Counted from the first letter of the stretch, positions 3 to 17,484 are shown. The stretch: DNA of 64,000 bases from Pseudomonadota bacterium (GCA_021325135.1 JAJPHT010000015.1:32001-96000); one strand, 5' to 3'. Notes: a model not told the origin generated them from the sequence alone. A program made the numbers and translations.

Positions 3-2141
3 TCGAGCTACGCGGCCAACTTCACGCCCCCCGGCGGGTACTCGTGCAACGCGTACCACAACAACGTCGTCTCCCAGTGGAGCGTCAACCTCCAGGACTG
101 GCCGCTGCTGCGCTACGAGCCCGGCGTGTGGACCTACTGGGTCGAGGCGCTGGACGGCGCGGGCAACAACGTCACGAGCGGGACCGTGCAGGTCTACGTC
201 CGCGACGACCAGCCCCCCGTCTCCACCGTGCAGCTCCAGCCCGCCATCATCGGGCAGGGCAGCACGACGCGCATCGTGGCCCACGTCACGGACAACTGGC
301 GCGTGGGCAGCGTCACGCTCTCGGTCTACCCGCAGGGCAAGACGACGCTCCTGAAGCGCATCGCCATGGCGGGCGACCCCAACAATCCCCCCGACGCCAA
401 CGGCATCGGCAACTACTCCGCGGACCTCGCCTCCGGCCTCGGCCTCGCGCTGGACGTGGGCAACTACACGTTCGACGTGTTCGCCGGCGACGGCAACACC
501 ACCGCGGCGTGCGCCGAGTGCCTGCACGCCAACGCCACGCTGCGCGTCGTCACCGAGGCGCCCCCCGACATCCGCTTCGAGCGGCCCGCCGAGGGCGTGA
601 CCTACGTCAACGCCACGCCCACCATCGCCATCCGCGTCACGGGCACCAACCTGACCGTCCCCGGCGTCGTCGTGACCGCGGGCAAGAACGGCACGCTCTC
701 CGCCGTCTCGCCCACCTTCGCGTTCCAGGCGGGCAGCAACAACTCCGTGCTCACCGGCTCCTTCGACGCGGTCCCGCTGGCGGCCGGCGACAACTACACC
801 GTCCGCGTGAACGTCACCACCGCGACGGGCTTCTTCGCCACCGTGAACCGCTCGTTCAGCGTCGACGCCGCGGCGCCCAACGTCACGGCCACGCCCACGG
901 GCAACGTCACGCTCGCGGGGGCCCAGTGGGCCGGCCGCGGCGCGACCGTCGCGCTGGCGGCCCACGACGACCTCTCCGGCGTCGCCGCCATCACGTACTC
1001 GGTCAACGGCGGCCCCACGCAGACGTATCGCGCCCCCGTGGACGTCGCGGGCCCCGACGGCACGTGGACGCTGGACTACGCGGCGGTGGACCGCGCGGGC
1101 AACGCGCAGCGCAACCGCTTCACCATCCAGCTCGACGCCACCGGCCCCTCCGTCAGCGTGCTCCAGACAGGCTCCACCGTGAACGTCACGGTGAACGACC
1201 GCTCGGGCCTCCTCAACGACTCGGTGAAGCTCTTCTACGCGCTGGGCGGAAGCGGCGTCTACCAGACGGCGCCCATGACCCGCGTGGGCACGACCAACGT
1301 GTTCACCGGCGCCATCTCCGGCGACGTGGCGCGGGGCTTCTCGTTCTACGTCACCGCGCGCGATGCCCTGGGCAACGACGGCAGCAACGGCACGGCCACC
1401 GCGCCCAACGTGGTGCCCCCCGCGACCGCGGCCGAGAACACGCCCCCCACGGTGAAGATCGTGACCCCCGCGCAGGGCGACTCGCTGCGCGACACGGTGA
1501 ACGTCCAGTACGTCGCGCACGACCTGGAGTCGGCCGACCCGCTGCTGAAAATCACCATCTCGCTGCGCAGCCCCGACGGCACGGGCCAGAACCTCGTCAC
1601 CGACTCCGACAACTCGGGCACCTACGTCCTCAACGCCAGCGGCATGCCCGCAGGCTCCTACACCCTCGTCGTGCGCGCGAGCGACGGCGACAAGGCCAGC
1701 ACGGACCAGGTGACGTTCAACCTGGAGGCGGGCCGCGCGGTGGAGGTCGTGAACCCGCCCCCCGCCAGCGGCGACGTGGACCAGCCCATGGCCTTCGCGG
1801 TGCGGTTCAACCCCATCGGCAAGACCGTGGCGCAGGCCACGTGGACCGCGTCCAAGGACGGCCAGGTCTACACCAGCGGCGTGCTCACCGCAGGCCAGGG
1901 CGCCTACGCGGCGAGCTTCACGCCCAAGGACCCCGGCGTCTACGACATCAAGGTCCAGGCTACCTACACCGACGGCACCAGCGACGCGCAGCCCACCACG
2001 GTGGCCACCGTCACCGTGGCCGGAGCGGCCGCGGCGCCCGCCTCCGGCGGCCTGCCGGCGTCCTTCCTCGTGCTCATCGTGCTGGCGGTGGCGACCATCG
2101 CGCTTGCCGCCTACGGCGCCTTCGTGAGGTGGAAGCCGTGA
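3..2141 (+). CDS. Large secreted/surface protein with tandem Ig-like beta-sandwich domains and C-terminal membrane anchor (5'-truncated by window)
   Basis: Frame open from position 3; Thr/Val/Asn-rich beta repeats (ALDGAGN, AVDRAGN, ARDALGN; DDLSGVAAITYSVNGG); C-terminal hydrophobic helix ending RWKP. Confidence 0.8.
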   Translation, partial: SSYAANFTPPGGYSCNAYHNNVVSQWSVNLQDWPLLRYEPGVWTYWVEALDGAGNNVTSGTVQVYVRDDQPPVSTVQLQPAIIGQGSTTRIVAHVTDNWRVGSVTLSVYPQGKTTLLKRIAMAGDPNNPPDANGIGNYSADLASGLGLALDVGNYTFDVFAGDGNTTAACAECLHANATLRVVTEAPPDIRFERPAEGVTYVNATPTIAIRVTGTNLTVPGVVVTAGKNGTLSAVSPTFAFQAGSNNSVLTGSFDAVPLAAGDNYTVRVNVTTATGFFATVNRSFSVDAAAPNVTATPTGNVTLAGAQWAGRGATVALAAHDDLSGVAAITYSVNGGPTQTYRAPVDVAGPDGTWTLDYAAVDRAGNAQRNRFTIQLDATGPSVSVLQTGSTVNVTVNDRSGLLNDSVKLFYALGGSGVYQTAPMTRVGTTNVFTGAISGDVARGFSFYVTARDALGNDGSNGTATAPNVVPPATAAENTPPTVKIVTPAQGDSLRDTVNVQYVAHDLESADPLLKITISLRSPDGTGQNLVTDSDNSGTYVLNASGMPAGSYTLVVRASDGDKASTDQVTFNLEAGRAVEVVNPPPASGDVDQPMAFAVRFNPIGKTVAQATWTASKDGQVYTSGVLTAGQGAYAASFTPKDPGVYDIKVQATYTDGTSDAQPTTVATVTVAGAAAAPASGGLPASFLVLIVLAVATIALAAYGAFVRWKP

Positions 2142-2779
2142 GCCCCGAGGTCATGGGCGTCGAGCTGGACGCCGACCTCCGCGCGTGGGGCAACGACCAG
2201 CGCCGCGTCGGGAGCCTCCTGGCCCTCATCCTCGCGGCGGCGTTCCTCGTGGCCGCGCTCGTCGTCTACTTCGTGCTGGGCCAGGATGGCGCCATCGCGT
2301 ACTGGACGCTCCTCGTCCTCGTCGCGCTGGCCCTCCTCTTCGAGGTCCTGCTCCTCGTCCTGCGCCCCAAGGCGGCGAGCCCCGCCGCCGAGCCGGCCGC
2401 GGCCGCCGCGCCCGCCGAGGCGCGCCCCGAGCCCGAGCCCCAGTGGGACGCCCCCGCGCCGAAGCCGGCGCCCGCGCCCGTGCGCACGCTCACGCTGCGC
2501 TGCTCGGACTGCGGCACCGTCTTCGACGTGGCCGACACGGGCGAGCGCCCGCTGCGCCACGTCTGCCCGGGCTGCGGCGCCGAAGGCACGCTGCGCGACG
2601 AGGTCCCCGCGCCGGCGGCCCCCGCGGTCCCGCTCCCTCCGCCTCCCGTGGCCATCCCGGTGAAGCGCCTCAAGCTCCGCTGCGGCGGCTGCAAGGAGGT
2701 CTTCACCATCGAGGACAGCGGCGAGCGCCCCCTGCGGCGCCCGTGCCCCTACTGCGGGCGCACCGGAGAGGTCAGGTAG
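2138..2779 (+). CDS. Membrane protein with two TM helices and two C-terminal Zn-ribbon domains
   Basis: GTG start overlaps upstream TGA (GTGA); two hydrophobic helices, Pro/Ala linker, duplicated CxxC...GERPLR..CPxCG motif. Confidence 0.8.
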   Translation: MSPEVMGVELDADLRAWGNDQRRVGSLLALILAAAFLVAALVVYFVLGQDGAIAYWTLLVLVALALLFEVLLLVLRPKAASPAAEPAAAAAPAEARPEPEPQWDAPAPKPAPAPVRTLTLRCSDCGTVFDVADTGERPLRHVCPGCGAEGTLRDEVPAPAAPAVPLPPPPVAIPVKRLKLRCGGCKEVFTIEDSGERPLRRPCPYCGRTGEVR

Positions 2780-3243
2780 GCGCCCAGCCACGGCAGCGGC
2801 GCGAGGCCGGCCGCCGGGGGAGGCGTCAGCTCGCACAGGATGGGCAGGGGGCCCGCGTTGAGGAGGCAGTCGTAGCCGGGGCACGAGGCGCCGGCCGCGT
2901 TGACGACGCAGACGCCGTCGCAATCCGCCAGGCCCACGTTGACGACGCAGTGCGTGTCGCAGTCGGAGCCGCCCACGTTGAGCTGGCAGTCGCTCTTGCA
3001 GTCGCCCTGGACGTTCACCAGGCACGTGCCGTTGCCGCGGCAGCTGCCGCCGGGCGAGACGACGTGGACGGCGTTCACGGTGCAGGACGCGCTGCAATCC
3101 GCCGCCACGTTGATGGTGCAGCTCCCGCCCGCGGCGCAGGGGTCGGGCACGCTGACGACGCAGTCCGCCGCCGCGGAGGGCACGAAGGGCACGATGCCGG
3201 CAAGGAGGGCGGCGAGAAGGGCGACGAGATGGAGTTTCTTCAT
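2749..3243 (-). CDS. Secreted Cys-rich repeat protein (16 Cys)
   Basis: Signal peptide MKKLHLVALLAALLAG..PSAAA; seven C-x3-5-C-x-[VIL]-N-[VA] repeats. Confidence 0.8.
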   Translation of the reverse strand: MKKLHLVALLAALLAGIVPFVPSAAADCVVSVPDPCAAGGSCTINVAADCSASCTVNAVHVVSPGGSCRGNGTCLVNVQGDCKSDCQLNVGGSDCDTHCVVNVGLADCDGVCVVNAAGASCPGYDCLLNAGPLPILCELTPPPAAGLAPLPWLGAYLTSPVRPQ

Positions 3244-3324
3244 GGACAGCCTCGCCCGCGGCACCATCGTCCCGAAGCATATACTTGCGTCGAAAAATGG
3301 AGAAAACGACCAGAGGCGGACTCC

Positions 3325-3516
3325 TCAGGGGAGGCGCCCGTCGACCAGCGCCTCCACGATCGCGGCCACCTTGTGGGGCCGCCCTCGTCGAACGCGCCGT
3401 CCACGGGGCCCCCGGCGGCATCCGGCTCCCGATCCCCGAGATGGGATCGGGGTCGCCCGCCGCCGCGATGGGCAGGAGCAGGAGGCACGCAAGGGAAGGG
3501 GAAAGGCCGCTCGCAC
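3325..3516 (-). pseudogene. Possible small secreted-protein gene broken by three single-base frameshifts
   Basis: Coding-like segments in three successive frames (VRAAFP / LACLLLLPIAAAGDPDP / DREPDAAGGPVDGAFDEGGP / HKVAAIVEALVDGRLP*); TTGAAG box 24 nt upstream; T-rich tract downstream. Confidence 0.35.
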
Positions 3517-3618
3517 GCTGGCGACCGGGCCCTGCCGGGCCTTCAAGGTTCTCCGCGGCCCGCGGACTTGCTGTGATTCCCGGATAAGGACGATATCACC
3601 GAGGGCCATCCAGCCCCG

Positions 3619-5562
3619 ATGCGAGCCATCGTCCTGCTCCTCACCCTGCTGACGCTGACGCCCCTCCTGCCCCTCGCCGCCGCCTCCGCGGCGCCCACCC
3701 CCGTCGACGCCGCGGGCCCCGACGCCGAGGGCGCCTGGGCCCTGCGCTACGACGCCGCGCGCGACGCGCCCGGCCGCGCCGCGGCGAGCCTCGACGTCGA
3801 GGTCCGCGACGGAGGCTCCACCCTCCGCGCCTCGCGCGACCTGGGCGCCCTGGACCTCCCCGCGGGCGCGACGCGGCTGAACCTCACCTTCCTGCCCGCC
3901 GAAGGCCCGGGCGACTACGCGGTCTCCCTGGTGCTCGACGGCCTGGAGGGCGAGCCGCTGGCCTTCCACGTCGAGGGGAGCCACGGCGCCAGCGCGCAGG
4001 TGGGCTTCTCCGTGCCCGACGAGCCCACCTGGCTCAACCTCACGTCGGACTCCGTGAACGCCGAGGGCAAGCAGAAGTCGCCCGGCGACGACGTGATCAC
4101 GCGCCTCACGCTCCACGACGGCAACGGCCTCGCGGACCTCGACCCCGCGCTGCGCTGGCGCGTCGACGGCCCGGGCTATCACGACGAGGGCGCGCTGCCC
4201 CTCCCCTCCGCGCCCTCTGCGACCGACGCCAGCGTCGAGCACCGCTGGCACGCCTCGCCGCTGGCCAACGCGACGTACCGGCTCACGCTCTCCGCCACGC
4301 GCCAGGGCGCCGCGCTGGCCAACGCGACGCGCACGTTCGTCATCAAGGACGCGCCCACGACGCTGGCGCCCCTCTCGCTCCCCAACGTGACGCCCGACGC
4401 CGACCTCGCGCTCCCCGTGGACGTCGTCCTCGCGGACCGCAACGGCGCGCCCGGCGCCGGCACGCTGGAGGCGCGCGTCTACCGCGGCAGCCAGCGCGCG
4501 GACGGGCTCAACGCGACCTTCGCCGACGGCAACGCCACCGTGGACCTGGCGCTGGGTCGCCCCCGCGGCGTCAGCGCGGAGGGGGCCGGCCTCACTGCGT
4601 TCCCGCTGACGCTGCGCGTCCCAGCGGGCGCCGCGCCCGGGCAGGCCCGCCTCTCGATCCTGCTCAACGGCGCGCTCCTGGGCTCCGCCACGCTCAACCT
4701 CAGCGCGCTTCCCACCCTGGCGAACCTCACCGCGACGCCCGAAGGCGACTCGCTCCGGTTCGACGCCTCAGGCTCCGGCGAGGGCGTGCTCCACGTCGAG
4801 CTTCGCGACGGCGGCCTCGCGAACGCCGCCGACGCGCCATTCGCCAACGGCTCCGCGCAGGCGCGCCTCGACGCGCCCGGCCCCGCGCGGGCGCTGCGCT
4901 GGAACGCCACGCTGCTCGCGCGCCCGGGCGGCGCGCCCCTCGCGTGGCGCGAGGGCGTCTGGACGCGCGCCGCGCCCGAGGTCTCCCTGCGCCTGCTGCG
5001 CGGCCTGCCGCGCCTCCCCGCCGCGTGGAGCGTCGAGGCGCCCGGCTGGGACCTCTCCGGAGCGGCCTTCAACGCGACGTTCACGCGCTGGGACGGCGCG
5101 CCCGAGCCCAACCTCACGGCGCGCTTCGACGGCTCGACGCTGGAGGTGGCGGGTCCCCCGACGCTGGAGCCGGGCCGCTACGCGATGATCGTGCGCCTCG
5201 CGCTCCCCAACGGCACCGTGGGCGTCGCGAACGCCACGCTGGACGCTGGCCCCTGGATGCGCGTCCACCTGGGCGCGCCCGTGGTCGCGGGCCGCGTCGC
5301 GCGTCTGGACCTCGCCAACGACGGTGGCCTCGCGGTGCGCCGCCTTGTCGTCGAGACGGAGGGCAACCTCACCGTGGCCCTCTTCGTCAACGGCTCCGCG
5401 GTGGCGCCGCGCGCGTCGCCCTCGGGCCGCCTCGTCTTCGACGGCCTCTCCCTGGCGCCGGGCGACGCGGCCGCGCTGGACGTGCGCCTCCCCGAGGGCC
5501 CGCTCCCGGCGGGCTTCCACGCCGGCGTCGTCCGCGTGCTCGCGCTCCCCGGGGGCTCCTGA
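3619..5562 (+). CDS. Secreted multi-domain beta-rich surface protein
   Basis: Signal peptide; many NxT/S sequons; GC3-rich codon usage. Confidence 0.75.
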   Translation: MRAIVLLLTLLTLTPLLPLAAASAAPTPVDAAGPDAEGAWALRYDAARDAPGRAAASLDVEVRDGGSTLRASRDLGALDLPAGATRLNLTFLPAEGPGDYAVSLVLDGLEGEPLAFHVEGSHGASAQVGFSVPDEPTWLNLTSDSVNAEGKQKSPGDDVITRLTLHDGNGLADLDPALRWRVDGPGYHDEGALPLPSAPSATDASVEHRWHASPLANATYRLTLSATRQGAALANATRTFVIKDAPTTLAPLSLPNVTPDADLALPVDVVLADRNGAPGAGTLEARVYRGSQRADGLNATFADGNATVDLALGRPRGVSAEGAGLTAFPLTLRVPAGAAPGQARLSILLNGALLGSATLNLSALPTLANLTATPEGDSLRFDASGSGEGVLHVELRDGGLANAADAPFANGSAQARLDAPGPARALRWNATLLARPGGAPLAWREGVWTRAAPEVSLRLLRGLPRLPAAWSVEAPGWDLSGAAFNATFTRWDGAPEPNLTARFDGSTLEVAGPPTLEPGRYAMIVRLALPNGTVGVANATLDAGPWMRVHLGAPVVAGRVARLDLANDGGLAVRRLVVETEGNLTVALFVNGSAVAPRASPSGRLVFDGLSLAPGDAAALDVRLPEGPLPAGFHAGVVRVLALPGGS

Positions 5563-6002
5563 TGCGTGGCGCGTGGCTGGCGCTCCTCCTCGCGCTCCCG
5601 GCCGCCGCGGCGTTGGACGCCTTCCCCGCCGAGTCGCGCCTGGGCGCCACCGAGGCGCGCTTCCTCGTGCGCCTCCCCGACGGGGGCGCGCTGCGCGTCC
5701 GCGCCGACGCGCCGGTGGACGTCGCCCTCGCGCCCCCCGGCGGGGAGCCCGAGGCGTTCGCGCCCGCTCCGGCGAGCTTCACCGTGGGGACCGCGACCGC
5801 GTGGCACGGCCTCCCGGGCGCGGTGGAGATCGTCGCGCGCCGCGCGGACGCGACGAGGCCCGTCACGCTGGAGGCCGACGACGGCGCGGGCGGCGTCGAG
5901 CTGGAGTGGCCCGCGCAGGCGCCCGCGCGATGGGCGCCCGCCCCCGGCGCGCTGGCGCTCGTGGGGCTCGCGGGCGCGGCGCTCGCGCTCCGAAGGATGT
6001 AG
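5562..6002 (+). CDS. Small secreted protein with C-terminal anchor (sorting-signal-like)
   Basis: ATG overlaps upstream TGA; signal peptide MRGAWLALLLALPAAAA; C-terminal APAPG + hydrophobic helix + RR. Confidence 0.7.
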   Translation: MRGAWLALLLALPAAAALDAFPAESRLGATEARFLVRLPDGGALRVRADAPVDVALAPPGGEPEAFAPAPASFTVGTATAWHGLPGAVEIVARRADATRPVTLEADDGAGGVELEWPAQAPARWAPAPGALALVGLAGAALALRRM

Positions 6003-6028
6003 CTACAACCGCAGTCCAAGTGTGGGAA

Positions 6029-6036
6029 CATATATG
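6029..6036 (+). promoter_or_regulatory. TATA-like box of the vapBC operon
   Basis: CATATATG 24 nt upstream of ATG 6061. Confidence 0.5.
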
Positions 6037-6060
6037 CAACCCGAACCCCAGCTCGTCCTG

Positions 6061-6300
6061 ATGCCAAGCCGATCCGTCACCCGACGCGTGCGCCTCACGC
6101 CCGAAGAGGACAAGCGCCTCTCGCGCATCGCGAAGCAGCGCGGCGCCGACGTGAGCAAGGTCATCCGCGAGGCCATCGACCTCCTGGAGCGGGAGGACGC
6201 GCGCCGCGCGGCGTACGACCGCATGATCGAGATCGCGGAGAAGGAGCAGAAGGCCCTCCAGGGGCGCCCGCCCCCCAAGGAGCGCTGGGCCCCCAGGTAG
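6061..6300 (+). CDS. Ribbon-helix-helix (CopG-like) antitoxin, VapB-type
   Basis: VRLTPEEDKRLSRIAKQRGADVSKVIREAID RHH pattern; directly upstream of PIN gene. Confidence 0.8.
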   Translation: MPSRSVTRRVRLTPEEDKRLSRIAKQRGADVSKVIREAIDLLEREDARRAAYDRMIEIAEKEQKALQGRPPPKERWAPR

Positions 6301-6307
6301 GTGGACC

Positions 6308-6697
6308 ATGCGGATCGTCCTCGACACGAGCGCGCTGTTCTACCCGCGCGCCCTGGCCTCGCTGCGCTCGGACCACCCCGGCGCGGAGCCCGTGATCCCC
6401 ACCGTCGTCCTCCTGGAGCGGGCGCGGCAGCTCTCCCGCGCGGGCCTCGACGGCGCGGGCGAGATGCGCGCGTTCGTCGAGCGCGGCGGGCTCACGCTGG
6501 AGGCGTTCGGCCCCGAGCAGGCGCTCCGCAGCCACCAGCGCGCGCCGCGGGACGACCGCCTCTGGGCGCGGGCGGGCCGCGACGCGATCATCGCGGGCCA
6601 CGTCGCGGAGGGGGACGTCCTCTGGACGGCGAACGCGCGCGACTTCCTCGACCTGGGCCTGGCGAGGGAGCAGGTGCTCGACGTCCGCGGCCTCTAA
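6308..6697 (+). CDS. PIN-domain toxin (VapC-like)
   Basis: IVLDTSAL, VLLE, DAIIA, LWTANARDF PIN motifs. Confidence 0.85.
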   Translation: MRIVLDTSALFYPRALASLRSDHPGAEPVIPTVVLLERARQLSRAGLDGAGEMRAFVERGGLTLEAFGPEQALRSHQRAPRDDRLWARAGRDAIIAGHVAEGDVLWTANARDFLDLGLAREQVLDVRGL

Positions 6698-9024: not shown

Positions 9025-9282
9025 GTGGTTCCCGTGTACCGAGCCGAAGTCCGCATCGAGCTGAAGCCTGGCGTGGCCGACCCCGAGGGAGCGAACACCA
9101 AGAAGGCGCTGGAGCTCCTGGGCTTCAAGGGCGTCAAGGCCGTGAAGTCCGTCCACGCGTTCAGCCTGGACGTGGACGCCGCCAGCGAGACCGAGGCCAA
9201 GGCGCAGGTCGAGGAGATGTGCAAGCGCCTCCTCGTGAACCCGGTCATCCACACGCCGCGCATCACCCTCCAGAAGGCGTGA
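9025..9282 (+). CDS. purS: Phosphoribosylformylglycinamidine synthase subunit PurS
   Basis: LKPGVADPEG and LLVNPVI motifs; operon with purL/purQ. Confidence 0.95.
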   Translation: MVPVYRAEVRIELKPGVADPEGANTKKALELLGFKGVKAVKSVHAFSLDVDAASETEAKAQVEEMCKRLLVNPVIHTPRITLQKA

Positions 9283-9285
9283 TCC

Positions 9286-11649
9286 ATGAGCGCGCTCACG
9301 AACCGCAGCAAGGTCGTCTTGGAGAGCCCGAAGGTCTACGCCATCGACCTCGCGGGCGCCAGCGACGCCGAGCTTCTGGAGATCAGCAAGACCATGGGCA
9401 TCGGCCTGGACGCCAGCGAGATGCGCGTCGTGCAGGAGCACTTCGCCAAGCTGGGCCGCGCGCCGCGCGACATCGAGCTGGAGGCCCTGGGCCAGGCGTG
9501 GAGCGAGCACTGCTGCTACAAGAGCAGCAAGCCCGTGCTCAAGCGCCACGTCTATGGCATCCACGAGGACCGCCTCGTCGCCCGCGAGGACGCGGGTGTG
9601 ATGCGCTTCGACGGCGAGTGGGACTACGTCGCCAAGATCGAGAGCCACAACCACCCCAGCGCCATCGAGCCCTACGGCGGCGCGGCCACCGGCATCGGCG
9701 GCGTCGTGCGCGACGTCGTGTGCATGGGCGCGCAGCCCATCGCCCTCATCGACCCCCTCTTCTTCGGGCCGCTGGACACGCCCTACGAGAAGCTCCCCCC
9801 GGGCACCAAGCACCCCAAGTACCTGGCGGGCGGCGTCGTGTCGGGCATCCGCGACTACGGCAACCGCATCGGCATCCCCACCGTCGCGGGCCTCATCCAC
9901 TTCCACCCCAAGTTCCTGACCAACTGCCTCGTCAACGTGGGCTGCATCGGGATCATGAAGCGCGAGAACCTCATCCACTCGCGCGTCGGCAACGTCGGCG
10001 ACCTCTACATCCTCCTGGGAGGGCGCACGGGCCGCGACGGCATCCACGGCGTGACCTTCGCCAGCGCGGACCTCGCCGAGGACGCCGAGGAGTCCAGCCG
10101 CAGCGCGGTGCAGCTTGGCGACCCCATCACCAAGGAGCCGCTCATCCACGCGTGCCTGGAGGCCAACGAGAGGAAGCTTCTCACCGGGTTCAAGGACCTG
10201 GGCGGCGGCGGCCTCTCGTGCGTGTGCGGCGAGATGGCGCTGGACGCGGGCGTCGGCGCCGAGATCCACCTCGACCAGGTCCACCTCAAGGCGCCCGACA
10301 TGAAGCCCTGGGAGATCTGGGTCAGCGAATCGCAGGAGCGCATGATGGTCACGGTCCTCCCCGAGAACGTGGAGAAGGTCCTCGCCATCGCCAGCAAGTG
10401 GGACGTCGAGGCGCGCGTCATCGGCACCGCGATCCCCCACAAGACGGTGCGCGTCATGTGGAAGGGCAGCGTCGTCTTCGAGATGGACAGCGAGTTCCTC
10501 TACGGCGGGCCCGTCTACAACCGCCCCATGGAGATCGTCGACGTGCAGGCCGCGACGACGAAGCGCCCCGCGCCGCGCGAGGACTACTCCAAGGCGCTTC
10601 TGGAGCTGCTGGGCCACGAGAACCTGGCCAGCCGCGAGAGCGTCATCCGCGTCTACGACCACGAGGTCCGCGCCCGCACCGTGCTGAAGCCCCTCCAGGG
10701 CAAGGTGGGCGTCGCGAGCCACGGCGACGCGGCGGTGCTCAAGCCCGTCGCGGACTCCTGGAAGGGCCTCGCCATCACCTGTGATATCAACCCGCACATG
10801 ACCGACGTGGACCCCTACTGGGGCACGCTCTCGGGCGTCGACGAGCTTGCGAGGAACCTCGCCTCGGTGGGCGCGCGGCTCGACAGCATCGCGGACAACC
10901 TCAACCTCCCCAACCCGCAGAAGCCGCTCCAGATGGGGCGCATCGAGATGGGCGCCAAGGCGCTGGGCGACGGCGCCCGCGCGCTGGGCACGCCCTTCAT
11001 CAGCGGCAACGTGAGCATGTACAACGAGTCGGCCTACACGCCGATCCCGGTGACGCCCAGCCTCCTGGGTGTGGGCATCGTGCAGGACATCCGCAAGTGC
11101 GTGACCACCGACCTCAAGCCCGAGGGCGGCCCCCTCTACCACGTGGGCGTCGTCAAGGACGAGATGGGCGGGAGCCACTGGTTCGCGCTCGCGGGCGGCG
11201 AGAGCACGGCGGTCCCGCGCGTCGACCTGCGCGAGACGAAGGCCTTCAGCGAGGCCGTCGTGTCCGCCATCGAGAAGGGGCTCGTCTCCGCGGCGCATGA
11301 TATCAGCATGGGCGGCCTCGCGGTCGCGCTGGCCGAGATGTGCATGGGCGGCGACGTGGGCGCCAGCGTGGACCTCTCCGCGCTGGGCGACCTCCCCACC
11401 GACGTGAAGCTCTTCAGCGAGTCCAACACGCGCTGGCTCGTCCAGGCGAAGGACGGCGCCGCGTTCGAGGCCCACATGGCCGCCGCGGGCGTGCCGGTCC
11501 AGCGCCTGGGCGGCGTCGGCGGCGACGCGATCCGCGTCAGCGACCGCGCGCCCCCCGCGTCCCGCGCGGGCTTCGTGGGCGTCCTGCACGTGCCCGTCGA
11601 GGCCGCGCGTGCCGAGTTCTCCACCGGCCTCAAGAGGAGGATGGCCTGA
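9286..11649 (+). CDS. purL: Phosphoribosylformylglycinamidine synthase subunit PurL
   Basis: WSEHCCYKSS, ESHNHPSAIEPYGGAATG, DLGGGGL, SESQERM, SGNVSMYN. Confidence 0.98.
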   Translation: MSALTNRSKVVLESPKVYAIDLAGASDAELLEISKTMGIGLDASEMRVVQEHFAKLGRAPRDIELEALGQAWSEHCCYKSSKPVLKRHVYGIHEDRLVAREDAGVMRFDGEWDYVAKIESHNHPSAIEPYGGAATGIGGVVRDVVCMGAQPIALIDPLFFGPLDTPYEKLPPGTKHPKYLAGGVVSGIRDYGNRIGIPTVAGLIHFHPKFLTNCLVNVGCIGIMKRENLIHSRVGNVGDLYILLGGRTGRDGIHGVTFASADLAEDAEESSRSAVQLGDPITKEPLIHACLEANERKLLTGFKDLGGGGLSCVCGEMALDAGVGAEIHLDQVHLKAPDMKPWEIWVSESQERMMVTVLPENVEKVLAIASKWDVEARVIGTAIPHKTVRVMWKGSVVFEMDSEFLYGGPVYNRPMEIVDVQAATTKRPAPREDYSKALLELLGHENLASRESVIRVYDHEVRARTVLKPLQGKVGVASHGDAAVLKPVADSWKGLAITCDINPHMTDVDPYWGTLSGVDELARNLASVGARLDSIADNLNLPNPQKPLQMGRIEMGAKALGDGARALGTPFISGNVSMYNESAYTPIPVTPSLLGVGIVQDIRKCVTTDLKPEGGPLYHVGVVKDEMGGSHWFALAGGESTAVPRVDLRETKAFSEAVVSAIEKGLVSAAHDISMGGLAVALAEMCMGGDVGASVDLSALGDLPTDVKLFSESNTRWLVQAKDGAAFEAHMAAAGVPVQRLGGVGGDAIRVSDRAPPASRAGFVGVLHVPVEAARAEFSTGLKRRMA

Positions 11650-12495
11650 ATGGTCTACCGAAAGGACATCAAAGTGGCCGTGCTCCGCATCGAGGGCACC
11701 AACAACGAGCAGGAGATGTGGGACAACTTCCACGCCATGGGCGCGCAGCCTGAGCTCGTGCACCTCAACCAGCTCGTCAAGAAGGACCTGCCCAAGGAGG
11801 AGAGGCGCAGCCTCGCGGACTACCACGTCCTCATGCTGCCCGGCGGCTTCAGCGCGGGCGACTACATCCGCGCCGGAGCGATCTACGCCGCGCGCATGAA
11901 GGCGGCGATCCCCAAGGAGATCGAGCAGTTCGTCGCCGCCGAGAAGCCCATCGGAGGCATGTGCAACGGCTTCCAGGTCCTCGTGGAGCTTGGCCTCCTG
12001 CCGGGCAAGGGCGCGGTCCTCCCCGACCAGCCCATGGCCGTGCTCAACCGCAACGACAGCGCGCTCTTCGAGTGCCGCCCCACGCTGCTGAAGCACGAGA
12101 GCCGCGGCAAGTGCGTGTTCACGCGGAGCATCCCCCGCGGCGAGGTGCGTCTCATCCCCAGCGCGCACGCCGAGGGGAAGTTCATGCTGGAGGCCTCCGA
12201 GCGCGAGCGCGTCCTGCGCGAGCTTGCCGAGCGCGACCAGGTCGTGTTCACCTACGCGGGCCCCGACGGCGGCCCGGCGGCCTACCCGTGGAGCCCCTCG
12301 GGCTCGACGGCGGGCATCGCGGGCGTCTGCAACGACATGGGCACGGTGTTCGGCATGATGCCGCACCCCGAGCGCGTGTTCCACCGCTGGCAGCACCCCG
12401 ACTGGACGCGCGACGCGCGGCACAAGCCCGACGGGCCCGGCGACGGGCGCGCCGTCTTCGAGAGCGTGCTGGCCTACGTGGAGAAGCGGTTCTAA
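11650..12495 (+). CDS. purQ: Phosphoribosylformylglycinamidine synthase glutaminase subunit PurQ
   Basis: PGGFSAGDY, GMCNGFQ, HAEGK, GMMPHPER. Confidence 0.97.
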   Translation: MVYRKDIKVAVLRIEGTNNEQEMWDNFHAMGAQPELVHLNQLVKKDLPKEERRSLADYHVLMLPGGFSAGDYIRAGAIYAARMKAAIPKEIEQFVAAEKPIGGMCNGFQVLVELGLLPGKGAVLPDQPMAVLNRNDSALFECRPTLLKHESRGKCVFTRSIPRGEVRLIPSAHAEGKFMLEASERERVLRELAERDQVVFTYAGPDGGPAAYPWSPSGSTAGIAGVCNDMGTVFGMMPHPERVFHRWQHPDWTRDARHKPDGPGDGRAVFESVLAYVEKRF

Positions 12496-12690
12496 AGCGG
12501 GGGGTTCGGGGGGCGCAGCCCCCGGAGGCCAGCGTCGTTCGGCCGCGCCGCAGCGCGGCTACCCGAGGGGGTTTCAGGGGGCGAAGCCCCCTGACGTGAA
12601 AGGACCGTTCCAACAGACGACGAAAACGTCAGGGGGGCGAGCCCCCCTGAAACCCCCCTCTTGGCGGCGCTGCGGCGCCGCCGAACGACG
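12496..12690. repeat. Composite REP/REPIN-like palindromic element, copy 1 (a single unit plus a full inverted dimer at 12533-12690)
   Basis: GGGGGTTTCAGGGGGCGAAGCCCCCTGACGT...ACGTCAGGGGGGCGAGCCCCCCTGAAACCCCCC, flanked by inverted CGTCGTTCGG + hairpin arms. Confidence 0.85.
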
Positions 12691-12766: not shown

Positions 12767-12958
12767 ATGCCTGAGCGCCGCGACCAGGACGAGGTCCTCC
12801 GGAAGAAAGGCAACGTGACCAAGAGCGACCGCGGCCTCCAGGTGTGGGGCGACGAGGCCGAAGGGGACCCTGGCCAGGCGGGCACGGGCTCCGAGGGCAC
12901 CGCGTCCCGCGCCGCGCGCATCACCCGCGGCCAGCGCGAGTCGCAGGAACGCGCCTGA
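12767..12958 (+). CDS. Small hydrophilic hypothetical protein (63 aa)
   Basis: MPERRDQDEVLRKKGNVTKSDRG...; GC3-rich codons; fills intergenic gap. Confidence 0.65.
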   Translation: MPERRDQDEVLRKKGNVTKSDRGLQVWGDEAEGDPGQAGTGSEGTASRAARITRGQRESQERA

Positions 12959-13034: not shown

Positions 13035-13499
13035 ATGCGATCCGCGCTCCTTCTCACGCTTCTCCTCACGACCGCCGCCATCGGCTTCGTCCCCGCCGCC
13101 AGCGCGGGGTGGACCGTCGTCTGCGCGCCCAAGCTGGACTGCGTCGCGGGCGTCTGCGTCTCGGGCTGCGGCAGCGATGCCCTCGTCTGCTTCGCCGTGG
13201 GCAACACCGCGCCCCCCGCCTGCATCTTGAACCCGTGCCCGCCCCAGCGCTGCTATCCCGAGCCGCGCTTCTCCGGCGTCCACGTCTACCGCGAGGTCTT
13301 CCCCGGGTGCGCCACCACGTCGCTGCCCCTCGTGGGAGCGCGCGCCAGCGCCGACGCCGCGGGCCAGCACGCCGACGCCCTCTTCCTCACCGCGCTCGTC
13401 GTGTGCGGCACCATCGTCGGCCTGGACGTGACGCCCGGCGCGCTCGACCCCACGGCCACGCCGCAGGCCCAGGTCCAGCCGATCCTGGTCCTGCTTTGA
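13035..13499 (+). CDS. Secreted Cys-rich protein (10 Cys)
   Basis: GGAGG upstream; signal peptide ending FVPAASA; Cys cluster in N-terminal half. Confidence 0.8.
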   Translation: MRSALLLTLLLTTAAIGFVPAASAGWTVVCAPKLDCVAGVCVSGCGSDALVCFAVGNTAPPACILNPCPPQRCYPEPRFSGVHVYREVFPGCATTSLPLVGARASADAAGQHADALFLTALVVCGTIVGLDVTPGALDPTATPQAQVQPILVLL

Positions 13500-13544
13500 G
13501 CGGGTCACGAAAGGGTTCTTGCCGGGCGGATCGCTCCTCGCCGC

Positions 13545-14231
13545 GTGGAGCCGATCCGCCCCGCGGATGAGCCCCTGGGCCTCGCCTTGGGCGCGCTCTC
13601 CAGCCCGACGCGCCTCGCGATCCTGCGCAGCCTCCGCACGCCGCGCACGCTGCGCGAGATCGAGATCGGCGCCGAGGAGGACGGCCGCCCCATCACGCGC
13701 CAGGCCGTGCGCCGCCACCTCGATACGCTCGTGGAGGCGGGCCTCGTCACGACCCGCGAGGCCGGCAGGGACTACGGCGACACCACCGAGTTCATCCTCA
13801 ACCACGCCCGCGTCTACGGCATCGCCGAGGACGTCCGCCAGATGGCGCGCCTGCGCCCCGCGGTCGACCCGGGCGGCCACACCGTCGTCGCGGGCAACGC
13901 CTCGCCCACGCGCCCCCGCGGGCCGGTGCTCATCCTCGTGAAGGGCGCGGACGACGGCGCCGCGTTCCCCCTCGACCCCTCCGCGGGCGAGCGCGAGTGG
14001 ATCGTGGGCCGCCGGCGCGGCGTCGGCGTGTGCCTCGACTTCGACGCCACCGTCAGCTCCGAGAACGCGCGCATCACGTGGCGCGACGGCGCGCACTGGA
14101 TCGAGGACGTCCAGGGGAGCCGCAACGGCACGCTCCTCAACCTGCGCCTCCTCGTGGCCGGCGAGCCCGCGCGCCTGGAGCACGGCGACCTCGTGGGCGT
14201 CGGCCGCAGCGCGCTCCTCTACTGGCGCTGA
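13545..14231 (+). CDS. ArsR-like winged-HTH transcription factor fused to C-terminal FHA domain
   Basis: ALSSPTRLAILRSL..AVRRHLDTLVEAGLV; FHA motifs VGR, VSSENA, SRNGTLLN, LEHGDLVGVG. Confidence 0.88.
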   Translation: MEPIRPADEPLGLALGALSSPTRLAILRSLRTPRTLREIEIGAEEDGRPITRQAVRRHLDTLVEAGLVTTREAGRDYGDTTEFILNHARVYGIAEDVRQMARLRPAVDPGGHTVVAGNASPTRPRGPVLILVKGADDGAAFPLDPSAGEREWIVGRRRGVGVCLDFDATVSSENARITWRDGAHWIEDVQGSRNGTLLNLRLLVAGEPARLEHGDLVGVGRSALLYWR

Positions 14232-14239
14232 GCGGTGGG

Positions 14240-14361
14240 CGTTCGGCGGCGCCGCAGCGCCGCCAAACGCGGGGGTTTCAGGGGGCGCAGCCCCCTGACG
14301 TGAAATCCCGTTCCAGCAGACGACTGAAACGTCAGGGGGGCGAGCCCCCCTGAAACCCCCC
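14240..14361. repeat. Composite REP/REPIN-like element, copy 2
   Basis: Near-identical to 12567-12658 including the spacer; same left hairpin arm GGCGGCGC-CGCA-GCGCCGCC. Confidence 0.85.
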
Positions 14362-16359
14362 ACTTAGGGCGCGCGCCATCTCGCCCGCGTCCTGGTAGCG
14401 GCGCGCGGGATCCGTCTCCGTCGCGCGCGCGAGGATGGGCTCCAGCGCCGCGGGCGCCGCGCCGGGGAAGAGGCGCCGCCCGATGAGGCCCAGCGCGAAC
14501 ACGTCGGAGCGCGTCGTGGGGGGATCGCCGCGGCGCTGCTCGGGCGCCAGATAGTCGGGCGTGCCCAGGGGGACCGCGTCCACGGGCGCGGTGCGGCCGC
14601 GGGCGAGGCGCGCGAGGCCGAAGTCCGCGATGCGCGCGCGGCCCTCGCCCGAGAGGAGGACGTTGCGCGGCTTCAGGTCGCCGTGGACGATGCCCTTCGC
14701 GTGGACGGCGGCGGCGCCGTCGGCGACGTCGCGCAGGAGCGACGCCGCGCGCTCGGGTGGCAGCGGGCCCCCGCGCAAAGCGTCCTCCAGCGAGCCTCCC
14801 TCGGCGTGCTCCAGCACGAGGACCCACGCGCCGCGGCGGCGGAACGCGTCGTGGACCGCGACGACGTGCGGGCTCGCGAGGCCGCCCGCGACGCGCGCCT
14901 CCTGGAGCGCGGCCTCGTCGCCGCCGTCGCCCGTGTCGCGCACCTCCTTGAGGACCACGCGGCGGCGCAGCGTGGCGTCCTCCGCGAGGAAGGCGCGCCC
15001 CGAGCCGCCCGCGCCCAGGAAGCGCTCCACGCGGTAGCGCCCCGCGACGGAGAGCCCCTCGCGCAGCGGCCCGCCGGCGCCCTCGTCCGCGATGCGCGCG
15101 AGGAGCGCGGCCGTCGTCTCGTCGAGGCCCAGGTCCTCGCGGAGGCGGCGCAGCGGCTCGTCCTTCAGGGGGTCGCGCCCTTCGGAGAGCGCGTCGGAGA
15201 CCGCGCGGCGGTACGCGTCCTGCGCGGCGGCCGCGTCGCCCGGCAGCGGCACGCCGTAGAGCTGGCGCGCGAGCTGGTCGACGACGCGGCGGAACCCCTG
15301 CGAGAGGAGCACGACGCCCGCGAGCAGGAGGAAGTCCAGCGGCGTCAGCGCGCCCGTGGCGCCGGTGAGCGCGAGGCCCACGACGGGGATGAGGAGCGCG
15401 CCCGCGGTCACGACGGCCAGCGCGACGAGGAGGCGGGCCGCGCGGCGGCGCTGCGCGACGGTCAGGCCCAGCGCGTCGTGGCGCACGAGGGCGGTGGACG
15501 CGAACGCGCCGAAGAGCACGAAGCGGATCGCGGCGCCCGCGCGGCCGAAGAGCGCGGTCGCGGGGGCCGAGGGCGCCCCCCAGAGGATGCCCGCGGCCAT
15601 GTCAAGGTCCGGGAGCTTGATGAGGAGGATGAGGAAGAACGAGCCGCCCAGCGCCCAGGCCATCGCGCGCCGCTGCCTCGGGTCCGCCCGGCCGCGCGCC
15701 GAGGAGAGAAGGAGCGTCGCCGCGACGCCGGCCACGAGAAGCGCGCCGCCCACCTCGGCGGCGAGGTAGCTCCACGGGGGGTTCGGCGCGGAGGAGGCCC
15801 GGAGGTACGCCTCGTAGAGGTTGGCCGCGAGCGTCGGGCCGTAGGGGACGGCCAGGAGCGCCACGGCGATGAACAGCGGGCGCCACGAGGCGCGCTCGGG
15901 CTCGCGAAGCATCCCCTCCAGCGCCCAGAAGAGGAGGCCCACGTACACCGTGGCCGTGAAGAGCGAGAGCGCCGCGGGGTACGCGAACGTCCGGTCGTTC
16001 ACAAAGGGCACGGTCGTGACGCCGGCGCCCCAGAGCGCGAGGGCGAACGCGGGCGCCGCGACGAGGAGGACGCGGGCGGGCCGCCGCATCGCGCCGGGGC
16101 GCACGTTGGCCGCGAAGAGGTAGAGCGCCAGGGGGTCCAGCGAGGCCGCGACACTGGCGAGCCGGAACCAGGGGAGGGACTCGCTGTCGGGGAGCGATCC
16201 GCGCGCCGTCTCCGCGACCTGGTTGAGCGCGACGAGGCCCAGGAACGCCGCGAGCCACAGCGCGGCGCGGGAGCGGCGCGCGGCCGGGAGGAGCGCCGCC
16301 GCGAAGGTGACGCCCACCACGGCGGCGGCCGCGCGCAGGAGGATCTCCGTCCCGACCAT
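14332..16359 (-). CDS. Multi-TM receptor-like Hanks-type Ser/Thr protein kinase
   Basis: About 9-10 N-terminal hydrophobic segments; LGAGGSG, VLKE, HGDLKPRN, DFG, GTPDYLAPE, SDVFALG. Confidence 0.92.
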   Translation of the reverse strand: MVGTEILLRAAAAVVGVTFAAALLPAARRSRAALWLAAFLGLVALNQVAETARGSLPDSESLPWFRLASVAASLDPLALYLFAANVRPGAMRRPARVLLVAAPAFALALWGAGVTTVPFVNDRTFAYPAALSLFTATVYVGLLFWALEGMLREPERASWRPLFIAVALLAVPYGPTLAANLYEAYLRASSAPNPPWSYLAAEVGGALLVAGVAATLLLSSARGRADPRQRRAMAWALGGSFFLILLIKLPDLDMAAGILWGAPSAPATALFGRAGAAIRFVLFGAFASTALVRHDALGLTVAQRRRAARLLVALAVVTAGALLIPVVGLALTGATGALTPLDFLLLAGVVLLSQGFRRVVDQLARQLYGVPLPGDAAAAQDAYRRAVSDALSEGRDPLKDEPLRRLREDLGLDETTAALLARIADEGAGGPLREGLSVAGRYRVERFLGAGGSGRAFLAEDATLRRRVVLKEVRDTGDGGDEAALQEARVAGGLASPHVVAVHDAFRRRGAWVLVLEHAEGGSLEDALRGGPLPPERAASLLRDVADGAAAVHAKGIVHGDLKPRNVLLSGEGRARIADFGLARLARGRTAPVDAVPLGTPDYLAPEQRRGDPPTTRSDVFALGLIGRRLFPGAAPAALEPILARATETDPARRYQDAGEMARALSGGFQGGSPP

Positions 16360-16440
16360 CCTTCGTGGGCCAGCGCGGCGCCCCCCATTGAGGGTTCCGG
16401 GCGCGGCAGGCCTTTTCCGGGGATGCGGCGATGGCCCCGC

Positions 16441-17484
16441 GTGGCCGCCGTCCGCGGGCTCCTTCAAGGCGACGCCGTGCTCGTGCCCGACGAGAAGGAG
16501 GCCAACGCGCTCTACAACAAGGGGAGCTTCGGCGTCCCGCAGCGCGGCGGCGCGCTCCGGCTCGACCTTGTCGAGGCGCTCTACCTCGTGGAGGCCGCGC
16601 GCCTGCGCGTCGAGGGGAGCGACGCGGCCTCGCTGCTGCGCCACGCCAGCGCGCGCGAGCCGGACTTCGAGATCCGCTACATCGTCTACCGCGACCTGCG
16701 CGGGCGCACCTTCGCCGTGAAGCCCAGCTCGCACCTGGACTACCACGTCTTCCCGCGCGGCGCGCTCCCGGGCAAGACGGCAAGCTCCCACGTCGTGCGC
16801 TGCGCCAGCGAGCGCGGGCGGTTCGACCCCGCGGGCGTGCTCGCCGAGATGGACCAGGCGAAGCGCCTGGGCAAGAAGCTCCTTCTCGCCCTCGTGGACG
16901 AGGAGGGAGACCTCACGTACTACGACGTGGCCGAGCCCGACCTCCGCTCCGGCGTGCAGGCGCTTCCGGGCGCGCGCGTGAAGGCCGTGCTGCTGGAGGA
17001 CCGCGTCATGGTGCTGGACGCCGACGCGGCGCGCGCGCTCTTCGCCGAAGGCTACTTCGGGCGCGACGTGGGCCTGGGCCTCCAGCTCTCGCTCCCCGAG
17101 GCGCTCTATCTCGCGGAGGCGAAGCGGCTCGACGTGGAGGACGCGGAGGGCAAGGCGGTCCCTCCGTTGGACCTGGCCGAGCGCGCGCGGCGCCTGGAGC
17201 CCGACTTCGACCTGCGGCAGCGCCTGTACGTTCACCTGCGCCAGGCGGGCGTCGTCGTCAAGACCGGCTTCAAGTACGGCACGCACTTCCGCGCGTACAC
17301 GGGGCCGCCCGACGAGGAGCACGCGCCCTACCTCGTGCATGCGCTCGCCGAGGGGCGCCTTCTCCCCTGGCCCGAGATCGCGGGCTTCGTGCGGCTCGCC
17401 CACGGCGTGCGCAAGCGGCTCTTCTTCGCGGCGCCCTCCGGAGGCGCGTTCCGGCTTCTGGAGCTGGCGCGGACGCGTCCGTGA
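16441..17484 (+). CDS. endA: tRNA-intron (splicing) endonuclease, two-unit alpha2 type
   Basis: Two LxLxEALYL repeats; KTGFKYGTHFRAY, catalytic H, RLAHGVRKR in C-terminal unit. Confidence 0.93.
   Translation: MAAVRGLLQGDAVLVPDEKEANALYNKGSFGVPQRGGALRLDLVEALYLVEAARLRVEGSDAASLLRHASAREPDFEIRYIVYRDLRGRTFAVKPSSHLDYHVFPRGALPGKTASSHVVRCASERGRFDPAGVLAEMDQAKRLGKKLLLALVDEEGDLTYYDVAEPDLRSGVQALPGARVKAVLLEDRVMVLDADAARALFAEGYFGRDVGLGLQLSLPEALYLAEAKRLDVEDAEGKAVPPLDLAERARRLEPDFDLRQRLYVHLRQAGVVVKTGFKYGTHFRAYTGPPDEEHAPYLVHALAEGRLLPWPEIAGFVRLAHGVRKRLFFAAPSGGAFRLLELARTRP

Follow-up and report, generated by a model that had tools for sequence, protein, structure and literature searches.

A convergent membrane kinase and HTH-FHA regulator in a Thermoplasmatota archaeon as one of about seven paralogous candidate phosphothreonine signalling pairs

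Introduction

In a 64,000-nucleotide (nt) stretch of genomic DNA (GCA_021325135.1 JAJPHT010000015.1:32001-96000), which as a whole we call the window, a gene for a polytopic membrane protein ending in a Hanks-type Ser/Thr kinase lies convergent to a gene for a protein that joins a helix-turn-helix (HTH) domain to an FHA domain, and a gene for a secreted, Cys-rich protein stands just upstream of the latter. This arrangement raises the question of whether a membrane sensor kinase signals directly to a transcription factor through phosphothreonine (pThr), and whether the Cys-rich protein takes part as its ligand or as a regulated output, as an earlier note made from the window's sequence had suggested. 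Our analysis indicates that the kinase and the regulator are probably one of about seven paralogous one-kinase/one-regulator pThr signalling pairs in a Thermoplasmatota archaeon, and that a frequent neighbour, or a target of the regulation, is a likelier description of the Cys-rich gene than an obligatory ligand. Below, coordinates are positions in the whole window, and P0001, P0002 and P0003 denote the Cys-rich protein, the regulator and the kinase, respectively.

Results

The regulator joins an ArsR-like HTH to an intact FHA domain

The three contiguous genes listed by the earlier note were found at their places (Table 1), and their high GC content at third codon positions (GC3) fits coding sequence; in the window, which has a G+C content of ~73%, genes can be recognised by a GC3 above 0.9. 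Because all named relatives of P0002 come from "Thermoplasmata" or "Thermoplasmatota" metagenome-assembled genomes (MAGs), we assign the host, on this kinship of sequences, to an uncultured Thermoplasmatota archaeon; the assembly of the source genome comprises 3.77 Mb.

The proposed fusion of an ArsR-like HTH to an FHA domain in P0002 was borne out, as HTH_20 (PF12840) matched residues 18-71 (nt 13596-13757) with 39.7 bits against a cut-off of 27, and FHA (PF00498) matched residues 152-220 (nt 13998-14204) with 41.4 bits against a cut-off of 20.7. The closest solved relatives in the PDB were SrnR and an ArsR-family regulator, together with FHA entries. The metalloregulator subfamily model NF033788 scored 33.4 bits, below its cut-off of 55, which leaves P0002 outside that subfamily. 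The FHA motif reads as the earlier note had it, with G155-R156, S171 and N194-G-T present and N174 in place of the usual His of SxxH. Among 136 family members these residues were conserved almost throughout (G155 in 136, R156 in 134, S171 and N194 in 132 each, G195 in 130 and T196 in 129), and position 174 was occupied by Asn in 88, His in 42 and Gln in 3. Since Asn is thus the conserved majority state in the family, the comparison argues for Asn174 being a tolerated variant and not a sign of decay. The pThr-binding residues of the FHA domain are intact, and P0002 is predicted to bind pThr. In the linker between the two domains, which is otherwise variable and rich in Ala, Pro and Gly, one residue stood out: T113 (codon 13881-13883), in the context RLRPxxEPxxxT[VIL], was kept in 131 of the 136 members, and we propose it as the best candidate site for phosphorylation.

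P0003 carries a complete, non-RD kinase domain

Pkinase (PF00069) matched residues 442-636 of P0003 with 123 bits against a cut-off of 31.7, while in residues 1-440 the Pfam/NCBIfam scan called no family. When 34 homologues of 22-62% identity were compared, G451, K471, E487, H559-x-D561, N566, the DFG motif at 579-581, P606-E607 of APE, D619 and R654 were all invariant, and the Gly-rich loop (G449/G451/G454) and the other catalytic residues were invariant or nearly so in sets of both 12 and 34 homologues. The earlier description of an intact Hanks-type kinase therefore holds, with the refinement that P0003 reads HGD, not HRD, and so is a non-RD kinase. HGD is found in about half of the kinase paralogues of the genome and HRD in the remainder; RD is a feature of a kinase subclass, not a requirement of the family. 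A Thr in the activation loop, at 590 or 591, is present in 28 of the 34 homologues, and Thr600 of the GT motif in 33. We conclude that the kinase domain of P0003 is complete, of the non-RD Hanks type and faces the cytoplasm.

Between the kinase domain and the membrane, the AlphaFold2 (AF2) model places three linker helices (residues 376-392, 401-410 and 414-428), and the linker (369-436) bears a conserved Y383 and an LRxxLG[IL][ST]E motif. As a separate observation, this motif together with Y383 resembles an HTH signature.

A polytopic sensor without an ectodomain

The full-length AF2 model of P0003, with a mean predicted local distance difference test score (pLDDT) of 85.7, consists of 11 transmembrane (TM) helices, the three-helix cytoplasmic linker and the kinase, which corrects the earlier count of 9-10 TM helices; a model of residues 1-375 alone reached a pLDDT of 86.7 and a predicted TM-score (pTM) of 0.87. 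Because loops rich in Arg and Lys alternate regularly along the chain (28-30, 87-93, 153-158, 222-226 and 294-300), the topology is predicted to place the N-terminus outside and the kinase inside. All predicted outer loops are 12 residues or shorter. With no ectodomain in the sensor, the architecture points to a signal that is sensed in or at the membrane.

To what this sensor is related was addressed by structure and by profile. A Foldseek search of the TM-domain model against the PDB gave no match below an E-value of 0.001, and matches to fusions of G-protein-coupled receptors (GPCRs) with bRIL (E>=0.004) were discarded, since their TM-score was ~0.3 and their root-mean-square deviation above 19 Å. 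VIA-align gave Z scores of 12-13.5 to GPCRs and designed GPCR-like folds over 205-246 residues, within residues 1-~310, a range that helical bundles reach by chance. The nearest models in the ESM-Atlas were Thermoplasmatota DUF835/HisKA_7TM proteins (TM-score 0.51), 7TMR-DISM GGDEF proteins (0.47) and HlyIII (0.44), and HisKA_7TM histidine kinases were also among the nearest. In the family itself, PF16927 (HisKA_7TM) was matched by 5 of the 34 members, with a best E-value of 1.1e-5, and PF07695 (7TMR-DISM_7TM) by one. The best two PF16927 matches in the genome came from kinase paralogues, namely from the sensors of those on C23 and C3, with 28.2-29.2 bits for the C23 protein at a cut-off of 28.6. 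We read the sensor, from the model and these family matches, as a putative divergent seven-transmembrane (7TM) receptor module made up of the first seven helices, with four helices added.

Kinase and regulator genes were duplicated as pairs

A first pass over the genome gave 7 FHA matches and 10 strong Hanks-kinase matches with long open frames, to which one more HTH-FHA protein, encoded next to a kinase at C15:238059, was added. Each of the eight proteins is ~220-290 amino acids (aa) long and carries its FHA domain C-terminal to an ArsR-like HTH; in two of the eight copies the HTH falls below the Pfam cut-off, and both align with the other copies over their full length. For seven of the eight HTH-FHA genes, the immediate neighbour encodes a kinase of 600-740 aa that has a homologous polytopic N-terminal region. 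In four of these pairs the genes converge and overlap by 13-44 bp at their 3' ends, the window pair is convergent with a 100-bp gap, and two are co-directional with the regulator first.

For the seven pairs, the distances among regulators and those among the neighbouring kinase domains were correlated (Mantel r 0.64, permutation p 0.011), and by both sets of distances the window pair grouped with those of C23 and C21. As all seven pairs reside in one genome, species phylogeny cannot explain this correlation, and the congruence of the two sets of sequences indicates that kinase and regulator were duplicated together, as units. The genome also gave 36 receiver-domain matches, so the HTH-FHA/kinase system coexists with two-component signalling and does not replace it.

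At C17 (L033) we noted a multi-TM kinase paralogue (1974-4067) that has no HTH-FHA neighbour and is followed by a gene for a 790-aa TrmB-HTH protein with three PAS domains (4130-6502), which may be an alternative regulator partner.

The linkage extends across Thermoplasmatota

The earlier note had taken conserved linkage in other genomes as one test of its proposal, and such linkage was found at every distance examined. A same-genus MAG, whose regulator is 77% identical to P0002, keeps purQ, the small open reading frame (ORF), the Cys-rich gene, the HTH-FHA gene, the convergent kinase gene and endA, and in the distant MAG BP_740 an HTH-FHA gene is convergent with the gene for a 611-aa kinase. 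The order was further represented by 14 genomes from 10 genera and 5 families; of their 65 FHA matches, 48 lay within 3.5 kb of a Pkinase match on the same contig, a lower bound since many assemblies are fragmented, against a chance expectation that we estimate at ~2% (from ~8 kinases in ~3 Mb). Forty regions from 13 more distant genomes gave a similar picture, as 29 of the 40 HTH-FHA genes directly adjoin a Hanks kinase; in 13 of these pairs the genes converge, in 8 the kinase gene comes first, in 7 the regulator gene does, and one pair is divergent.

The distribution of full-length HTH-FHA matches was followed in a sample of 401 Thermoplasmatota genomes, many of which had at least seven. The fusion occurred in 15/15 genomes of the order, in 6/6 of a second family of the class and in several further families, e.g. 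in 11/19 genomes of one of them (f30), and most other families in this sample had no match. A profile search of 1.84 billion cluster representatives gave ~400 clusters at 50% identity (E<=1e-30), nearly all of them 215-300 aa long and matched over the full length; a separate locus search with one narrow pattern returned 8 loci, a number that says little about distribution. Taken together, these comparisons strongly support a linkage of the two predicted partners that is kept across genera, families and orders of Thermoplasmatota.

In other genomes we also observed kinases with other input parts beside HTH-FHA genes. One, of 435 aa, apparently has a receiver-like segment at its start (L064, 9715-11022, minus strand), and three of 1256-1263 aa have a signal peptide and a large N-terminal region (L053, 4066-7857; L058, 4979-8749; L081, 810-4601).

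A proposed pathway from membrane to promoter

We propose that a signal sensed in or at the membrane would activate the kinase, which would autophosphorylate, probably on Thr590/591 of its activation loop. The FHA domain of the regulator would dock on the resulting pThr of the kinase and the regulator would then be phosphorylated itself, for which the near-invariant linker Thr113 is the best candidate; FHA-pThr binding within or between regulator subunits may then alter DNA binding and, with it, transcription. The wiring of a membrane kinase to an FHA transcription factor, the centre of the earlier proposal, thus receives strong support from comparative evidence, namely the linkage, the co-amplification and the conserved residues, and we consider this pathway, mechanism included, to be the probable function of the pair.

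Several points weigh against it. Phosphotransfer, pThr binding and DNA binding are predictions from sequence and comparison, and linkage alone is no proof of a kinase-substrate relation. Many pairs, that of the window included, are not co-transcribed, because their genes are convergent, and the genome holds an unpaired HTH-FHA gene on C33 and unpaired kinases on C17, C37 and C3. T113 could be structural rather than a phospho-acceptor. As to the sensor, residues 1-375 of P0003 themselves matched neither PF16927 nor PF07695 at E<=1, and the VIA-align scores lie, as said, in the range of chance. Finally, a PP2C_2 (PF13672) phosphatase was not found in the genome, in which other phosphatase families were not searched.

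The role of the secreted Cys-rich neighbour and other explanations

As the earlier note had described, P0001 is a secreted protein with 10 Cys: a signal peptide occupies residues 1-24 and GGAGG lies 8 nt before the ATG. A conserved 8-Cys core (residues 25-76) is followed by a lineage-specific C-terminal half with one hydrophobic segment. The protein matched nothing in Pfam or NCBIfam and no feature in the ESM-Atlas, where its stored model is unreliable (pLDDT 0.35). Its orthologue in the same-genus MAG has 76 aa, that is, a signal peptide and a 52-aa 8-Cys core 63% identical to that of P0001, and stops right after CYP, so that only the first ~76 aa with 8 Cys are kept; the ORF in the window extends 78 codons further, with a GC3 of 0.94 in the N-terminal half and a coding-type 0.97 in the C-terminal half.

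For the wider occurrence of such neighbours we used a home-made heuristic classifier for proteins of 60-350 aa that have a signal peptide and, in the mature part, 6 or more Cys; it misses P0001 itself because of the hydrophobic C-terminal segment. In the genome, 4 of the 14 genes flanking the modules were Cys-rich and secreted, as compared with 3.5% of all genes (Fisher p 0.0011), and by eye, P0001 included, such a neighbour stands at 5 of 7 modules. In other genomes the figures were 6/57 flank genes versus 7/465 other genes (Fisher p 0.0012), and both p-values overstate significance, as related genomes are not independent. Secreted proteins in general were not enriched at the flanks there (15/57 versus 97/465, p 0.22).

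These counts bear on the possibility of a full three-part module, in which the secreted 8-Cys peptide is the ligand, possibly autocrine or quorum-type, of the 7TM kinase and thereby acts on the HTH-FHA factor. The enrichment is in line with it, as is the same-genus locus, where the peptide and regulator genes keep their order 7 nt apart, and 7TM bundles can bind peptides. However, a Cys-rich secreted neighbour accompanies only 5 of the 29 pairs from other genomes, and the neighbours belong to several families (two at C21 and one at C48 are related, those of L068 and L073 weakly so, and the rest are unrelated). Moreover, a P0001 homologue was found in only one same-genus genome among the 21 of the class, and a kinase with such short outer loops offers no ectodomain. 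A complex prediction for P0001 residues 25-78 with the TM domain scored 0.01 against a mark of 0.32 and, run without controls, speaks neither for nor against binding. The three-part module is therefore, in our judgement, improbable, and we give equally little credence to its extension, a parallel "two-component" system built from eukaryote-like parts, in which pThr-FHA recognition would match each 7TM kinase to an HTH-FHA factor of its own and which would, with a self-produced, fast-evolving disulfide-rich peptide as cognate ligand in some modules, amount to peptide-based archaeal cell-cell signalling. In our reading the association with Cys-rich genes is real but facultative.

The secreted neighbours could instead be regulated outputs, if the HTH-FHA protein acts both on its own promoter and on an adjacent, often divergent, gene of the envelope or secretome. 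This fits better than an obligatory ligand, as the intergenic region 5' of the regulator gene is often common to both genes. In at least four modules of the genome a secreted gene lies 5' of the regulator gene, divergently at C48, C21 and C23 (~70-110 nt between starts) and co-directionally in the window and at C36; ArsR-type regulators, in addition, commonly act on adjacent promoters. The divergent intergenic regions C48:15120-15275 and C21:18200-18360 have the motif GGGGGACTTGG in common, a candidate operator or merely paralogous DNA. Against this, no operator was found that the intergenic regions of all the genome's modules share, a Cys-rich secreted neighbour is missing from most pairs elsewhere, and the enrichment does not extend to secreted proteins in general, so that we hold regulated output to be possible but short of likely. 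That the HTH-FHA protein is no substrate of the kinase at all, serving as a pThr adaptor for other phosphoproteins or as a regulator of the kinase gene, with adjacency reflecting co-inheritance only, would agree with the convergent arrangement, which rules out co-transcription in many pairs, and with the one unpaired HTH-FHA gene and three partnerless kinases of the genome. It agrees poorly with pairs that were co-duplicated, with ~74% adjacency across the order and with the near-invariant linker Thr, and phosphorylation of an FHA regulator by a kinase has a precedent in PknH/EmbR. Another is ST1565/ST0829 (PMC5007285), and we find the non-substrate view a little less credible still than the three-part module. 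By far the least probable role for P0003 is one in anti-virus defence, as a kinase of the PD-T4-6, Stk2 or MADS type with the HTH-FHA protein as its accessory. Although PADLOC models for PD-T4-6 and mad6 matched residues 437-626 with E-values down to 1e-51, and the NCBIfam MADS6 model scored 117 bits, the matches span the generic kinase domain only and 117 bits compares with an equivalog cut-off of 460; membership in these families was accordingly rejected. The locus, furthermore, sits in a conserved housekeeping context (purL-purQ ... endA) that it has in common with the relative whose regulator is 77% identical, and to have seven paralogous pairs in one genome, with a 7TM sensor in every kinase, is typical of environmental signalling. 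Thus, of these explanations, signalling from the kinase to its paired regulator is the one we prefer.

Two further secreted proteins were observed in the genome. In place of a neighbour of the above class, the C36 module (L027) has a gene at ~2700-4555 on the plus strand, missed by the GC3-based caller, that ends 55 bp before the HTH-FHA gene; its secreted product, of ~620 aa and rich in Gly and Cys, combines long GGxGG repeats with a Cys-rich central part. At C3:24504-24770 (minus strand), ~2 kb from the unpaired C3 kinase, lies the gene for a secreted protein of 88 aa with 6 Cys, whose signal peptide (MRSALL...VPxASAG) closely resembles that of P0001.

Surroundings of the three genes in the window

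The features of the locus are collected in Table 1. The 63-aa ORF upstream of the Cys-rich gene matched nothing in Pfam or PADLOC; in the same-genus MAG, its orthologue of 69 aa is 67% identical, has the same position, and overlaps the start of the Cys-rich gene with its stop. It is probably the first gene of a small-gene cluster, and may be the first of a three-gene transcript. Two GC-rich repeat copies in direct orientation bracket the three small genes (63-aa ORF, Cys-rich gene and HTH-FHA gene), and copy 2 encodes the last ~10 codons of the kinase (tail GGFQGGSPP) and its stop. The core palindrome, TCAGGGGG(G)CGNAGCCCCC(C)TGA, has 18 copies genome-wide and none at the other kinase/regulator modules. 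The idea that the repeats mark a mobile cassette was rejected, since the repeat is dispersed and absent from the other modules.

Table 1. Features of the kinase/regulator locus, by position in the window
Feature	Position (nt)	Strand	Basis or remark
purS-like ORF, purL, purQ	9025-12495	+	
Palindromic repeat copy 1, composite, REP/REPIN-like (repetitive extragenic palindrome), downstream of purQ	12533-12690		direct/inverted repeat families D1-D3, I2, I6
Small hydrophilic ORF, 63 aa, no known family	12767-12958	+	GC3 0.92
Secreted Cys-rich protein P0001, 154 aa	13035-13499	+	translation; GC3
HTH_20 (ArsR-like winged helix) + FHA regulator P0002, 228 aa	13545-14231	+	Pfam
Palindromic repeat copy 2, between convergent 3' ends	14240-14374		89-93% identical to copy 1, 1704 nt away
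Receptor kinase gene P0003, 675 aa	14332-16359	-	convergent to regulator gene
Hanks-type Ser/Thr kinase domain, P0003 residues 437-670	14350-15051	-	Pkinase
Cytoplasmic three-helix linker, P0003 residues 369-436	15052-15255	-	AF2 helices, column counts
Polytopic sensor domain, P0003 residues 1-368	15256-16359	-	AF2 model
tRNA-splicing endonuclease endA	16423-17484	+	

Discussion

Ser/Thr phosphosignalling in archaea has been detailed almost only in Sulfolobales, and the searchable literature describes no cognate kinase/transcription-factor pairs for Thermoplasmatota. The pairs reported here outline a compact predicted receptor-to-DNA pathway that is kept across orders, reaches at least seven pairs per genome and is represented by ~400 metagenome sequence clusters. 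If the proposal is true, specificity in a modular system akin to two-component signalling would rest on the recognition of pThr by FHA domains, and a prokaryotic Hanks kinase would be under the direct control of a 7TM receptor. T113, R156, S171 and N194 of the regulator and T590/T591 of the kinase offer experimental handles.

The earlier note knew of no described system with this logic in this archaeal group, a statement that needs some qualification. Our full-text literature searches returned no paper on an HTH-FHA fusion under the names searched and none that combined FHA, kinase and Thermoplasmatota; the kinase/FHA-regulator logic itself is already established by analogous pairs, PknH/EmbR and, in Sulfolobales, ST1565/ST0829-ArnA.

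In Mycobacterium tuberculosis, the gene for the membrane Ser/Thr kinase PknH adjoins that for EmbR, a DNA-binding protein with a C-terminal FHA domain, which docks on the phosphorylated kinase and is itself phosphorylated. The window pair resembles PknH/EmbR in that a kinase and an FHA-bearing DNA-binding regulator are adjacent, and kept so across genomes. However, EmbR has an OmpR/SARP winged helix and a BTAD, whereas in P0002 HTH_20 and FHA only, and no BTAD, were found; PknH has an ectodomain and crosses the membrane once, whereas P0003, without an ectodomain, is predicted to do so 11 times and to have a core like that of 7TM receptors; and the window system is archaeal and amplified to ~7 pairs per genome. 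As neither an OmpR/SARP domain nor a BTAD was found in the regulator, the likeness is an analogy, not membership.

In Sulfolobus tokodaii, the FHA protein ST0829 is a substrate of ST1565, and their interaction requires Arg, Ser, Thr and Asn of the FHA domain; binding of ST0829 to the flaX promoter has been proposed to depend on phosphorylation (PMC5007285). In the ArnA/ArnB-ArnC/ArnD network of S. acidocaldarius, ArnA, a zinc finger plus FHA protein (PMC5007285), forms an operon with its von Willebrand factor A (vWA) partner ArnB, and the Sulfolobus kinases are not described as neighbours of FHA genes (PMC5007285, PMC6509490). Common to these systems and ours are an archaeal Hanks kinase and an FHA protein that acts, or in our case is predicted to act, on promoter binding. 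ArnA and ST0829 combine their FHA domain with a zinc finger, whereas the eight copies of our genome, from a different phylum, have an HTH_20-type N-terminal domain; vWA was absent from the Pfam lists of three related loci, among whose neighbours no search aimed at vWA was made.

With HisKA_7TM and 7TMR-DISM proteins the kinase would, if our reading of its sensor is right, share the plan of a signalling enzyme that begins with a 7TM bundle; their output is a His kinase or a cyclase (GGDEF), whereas P0003 has a Hanks Ser/Thr kinase and four extra TM helices. The pair likewise resembles two-component systems in that a membrane sensor kinase has a cognate DNA-binding partner encoded by an adjacent gene, and in its expansion by pair duplication, but their chemistry is His-Asp phosphotransfer to a receiver, while for the present pair we propose a pThr that is read by FHA. 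In summary, what is new relative to the known pairs is the HTH_20 regulator, the putative 7TM-type polytopic sensor, the occurrence in Thermoplasmatota and the presence of many one-to-one adjacent pairs.

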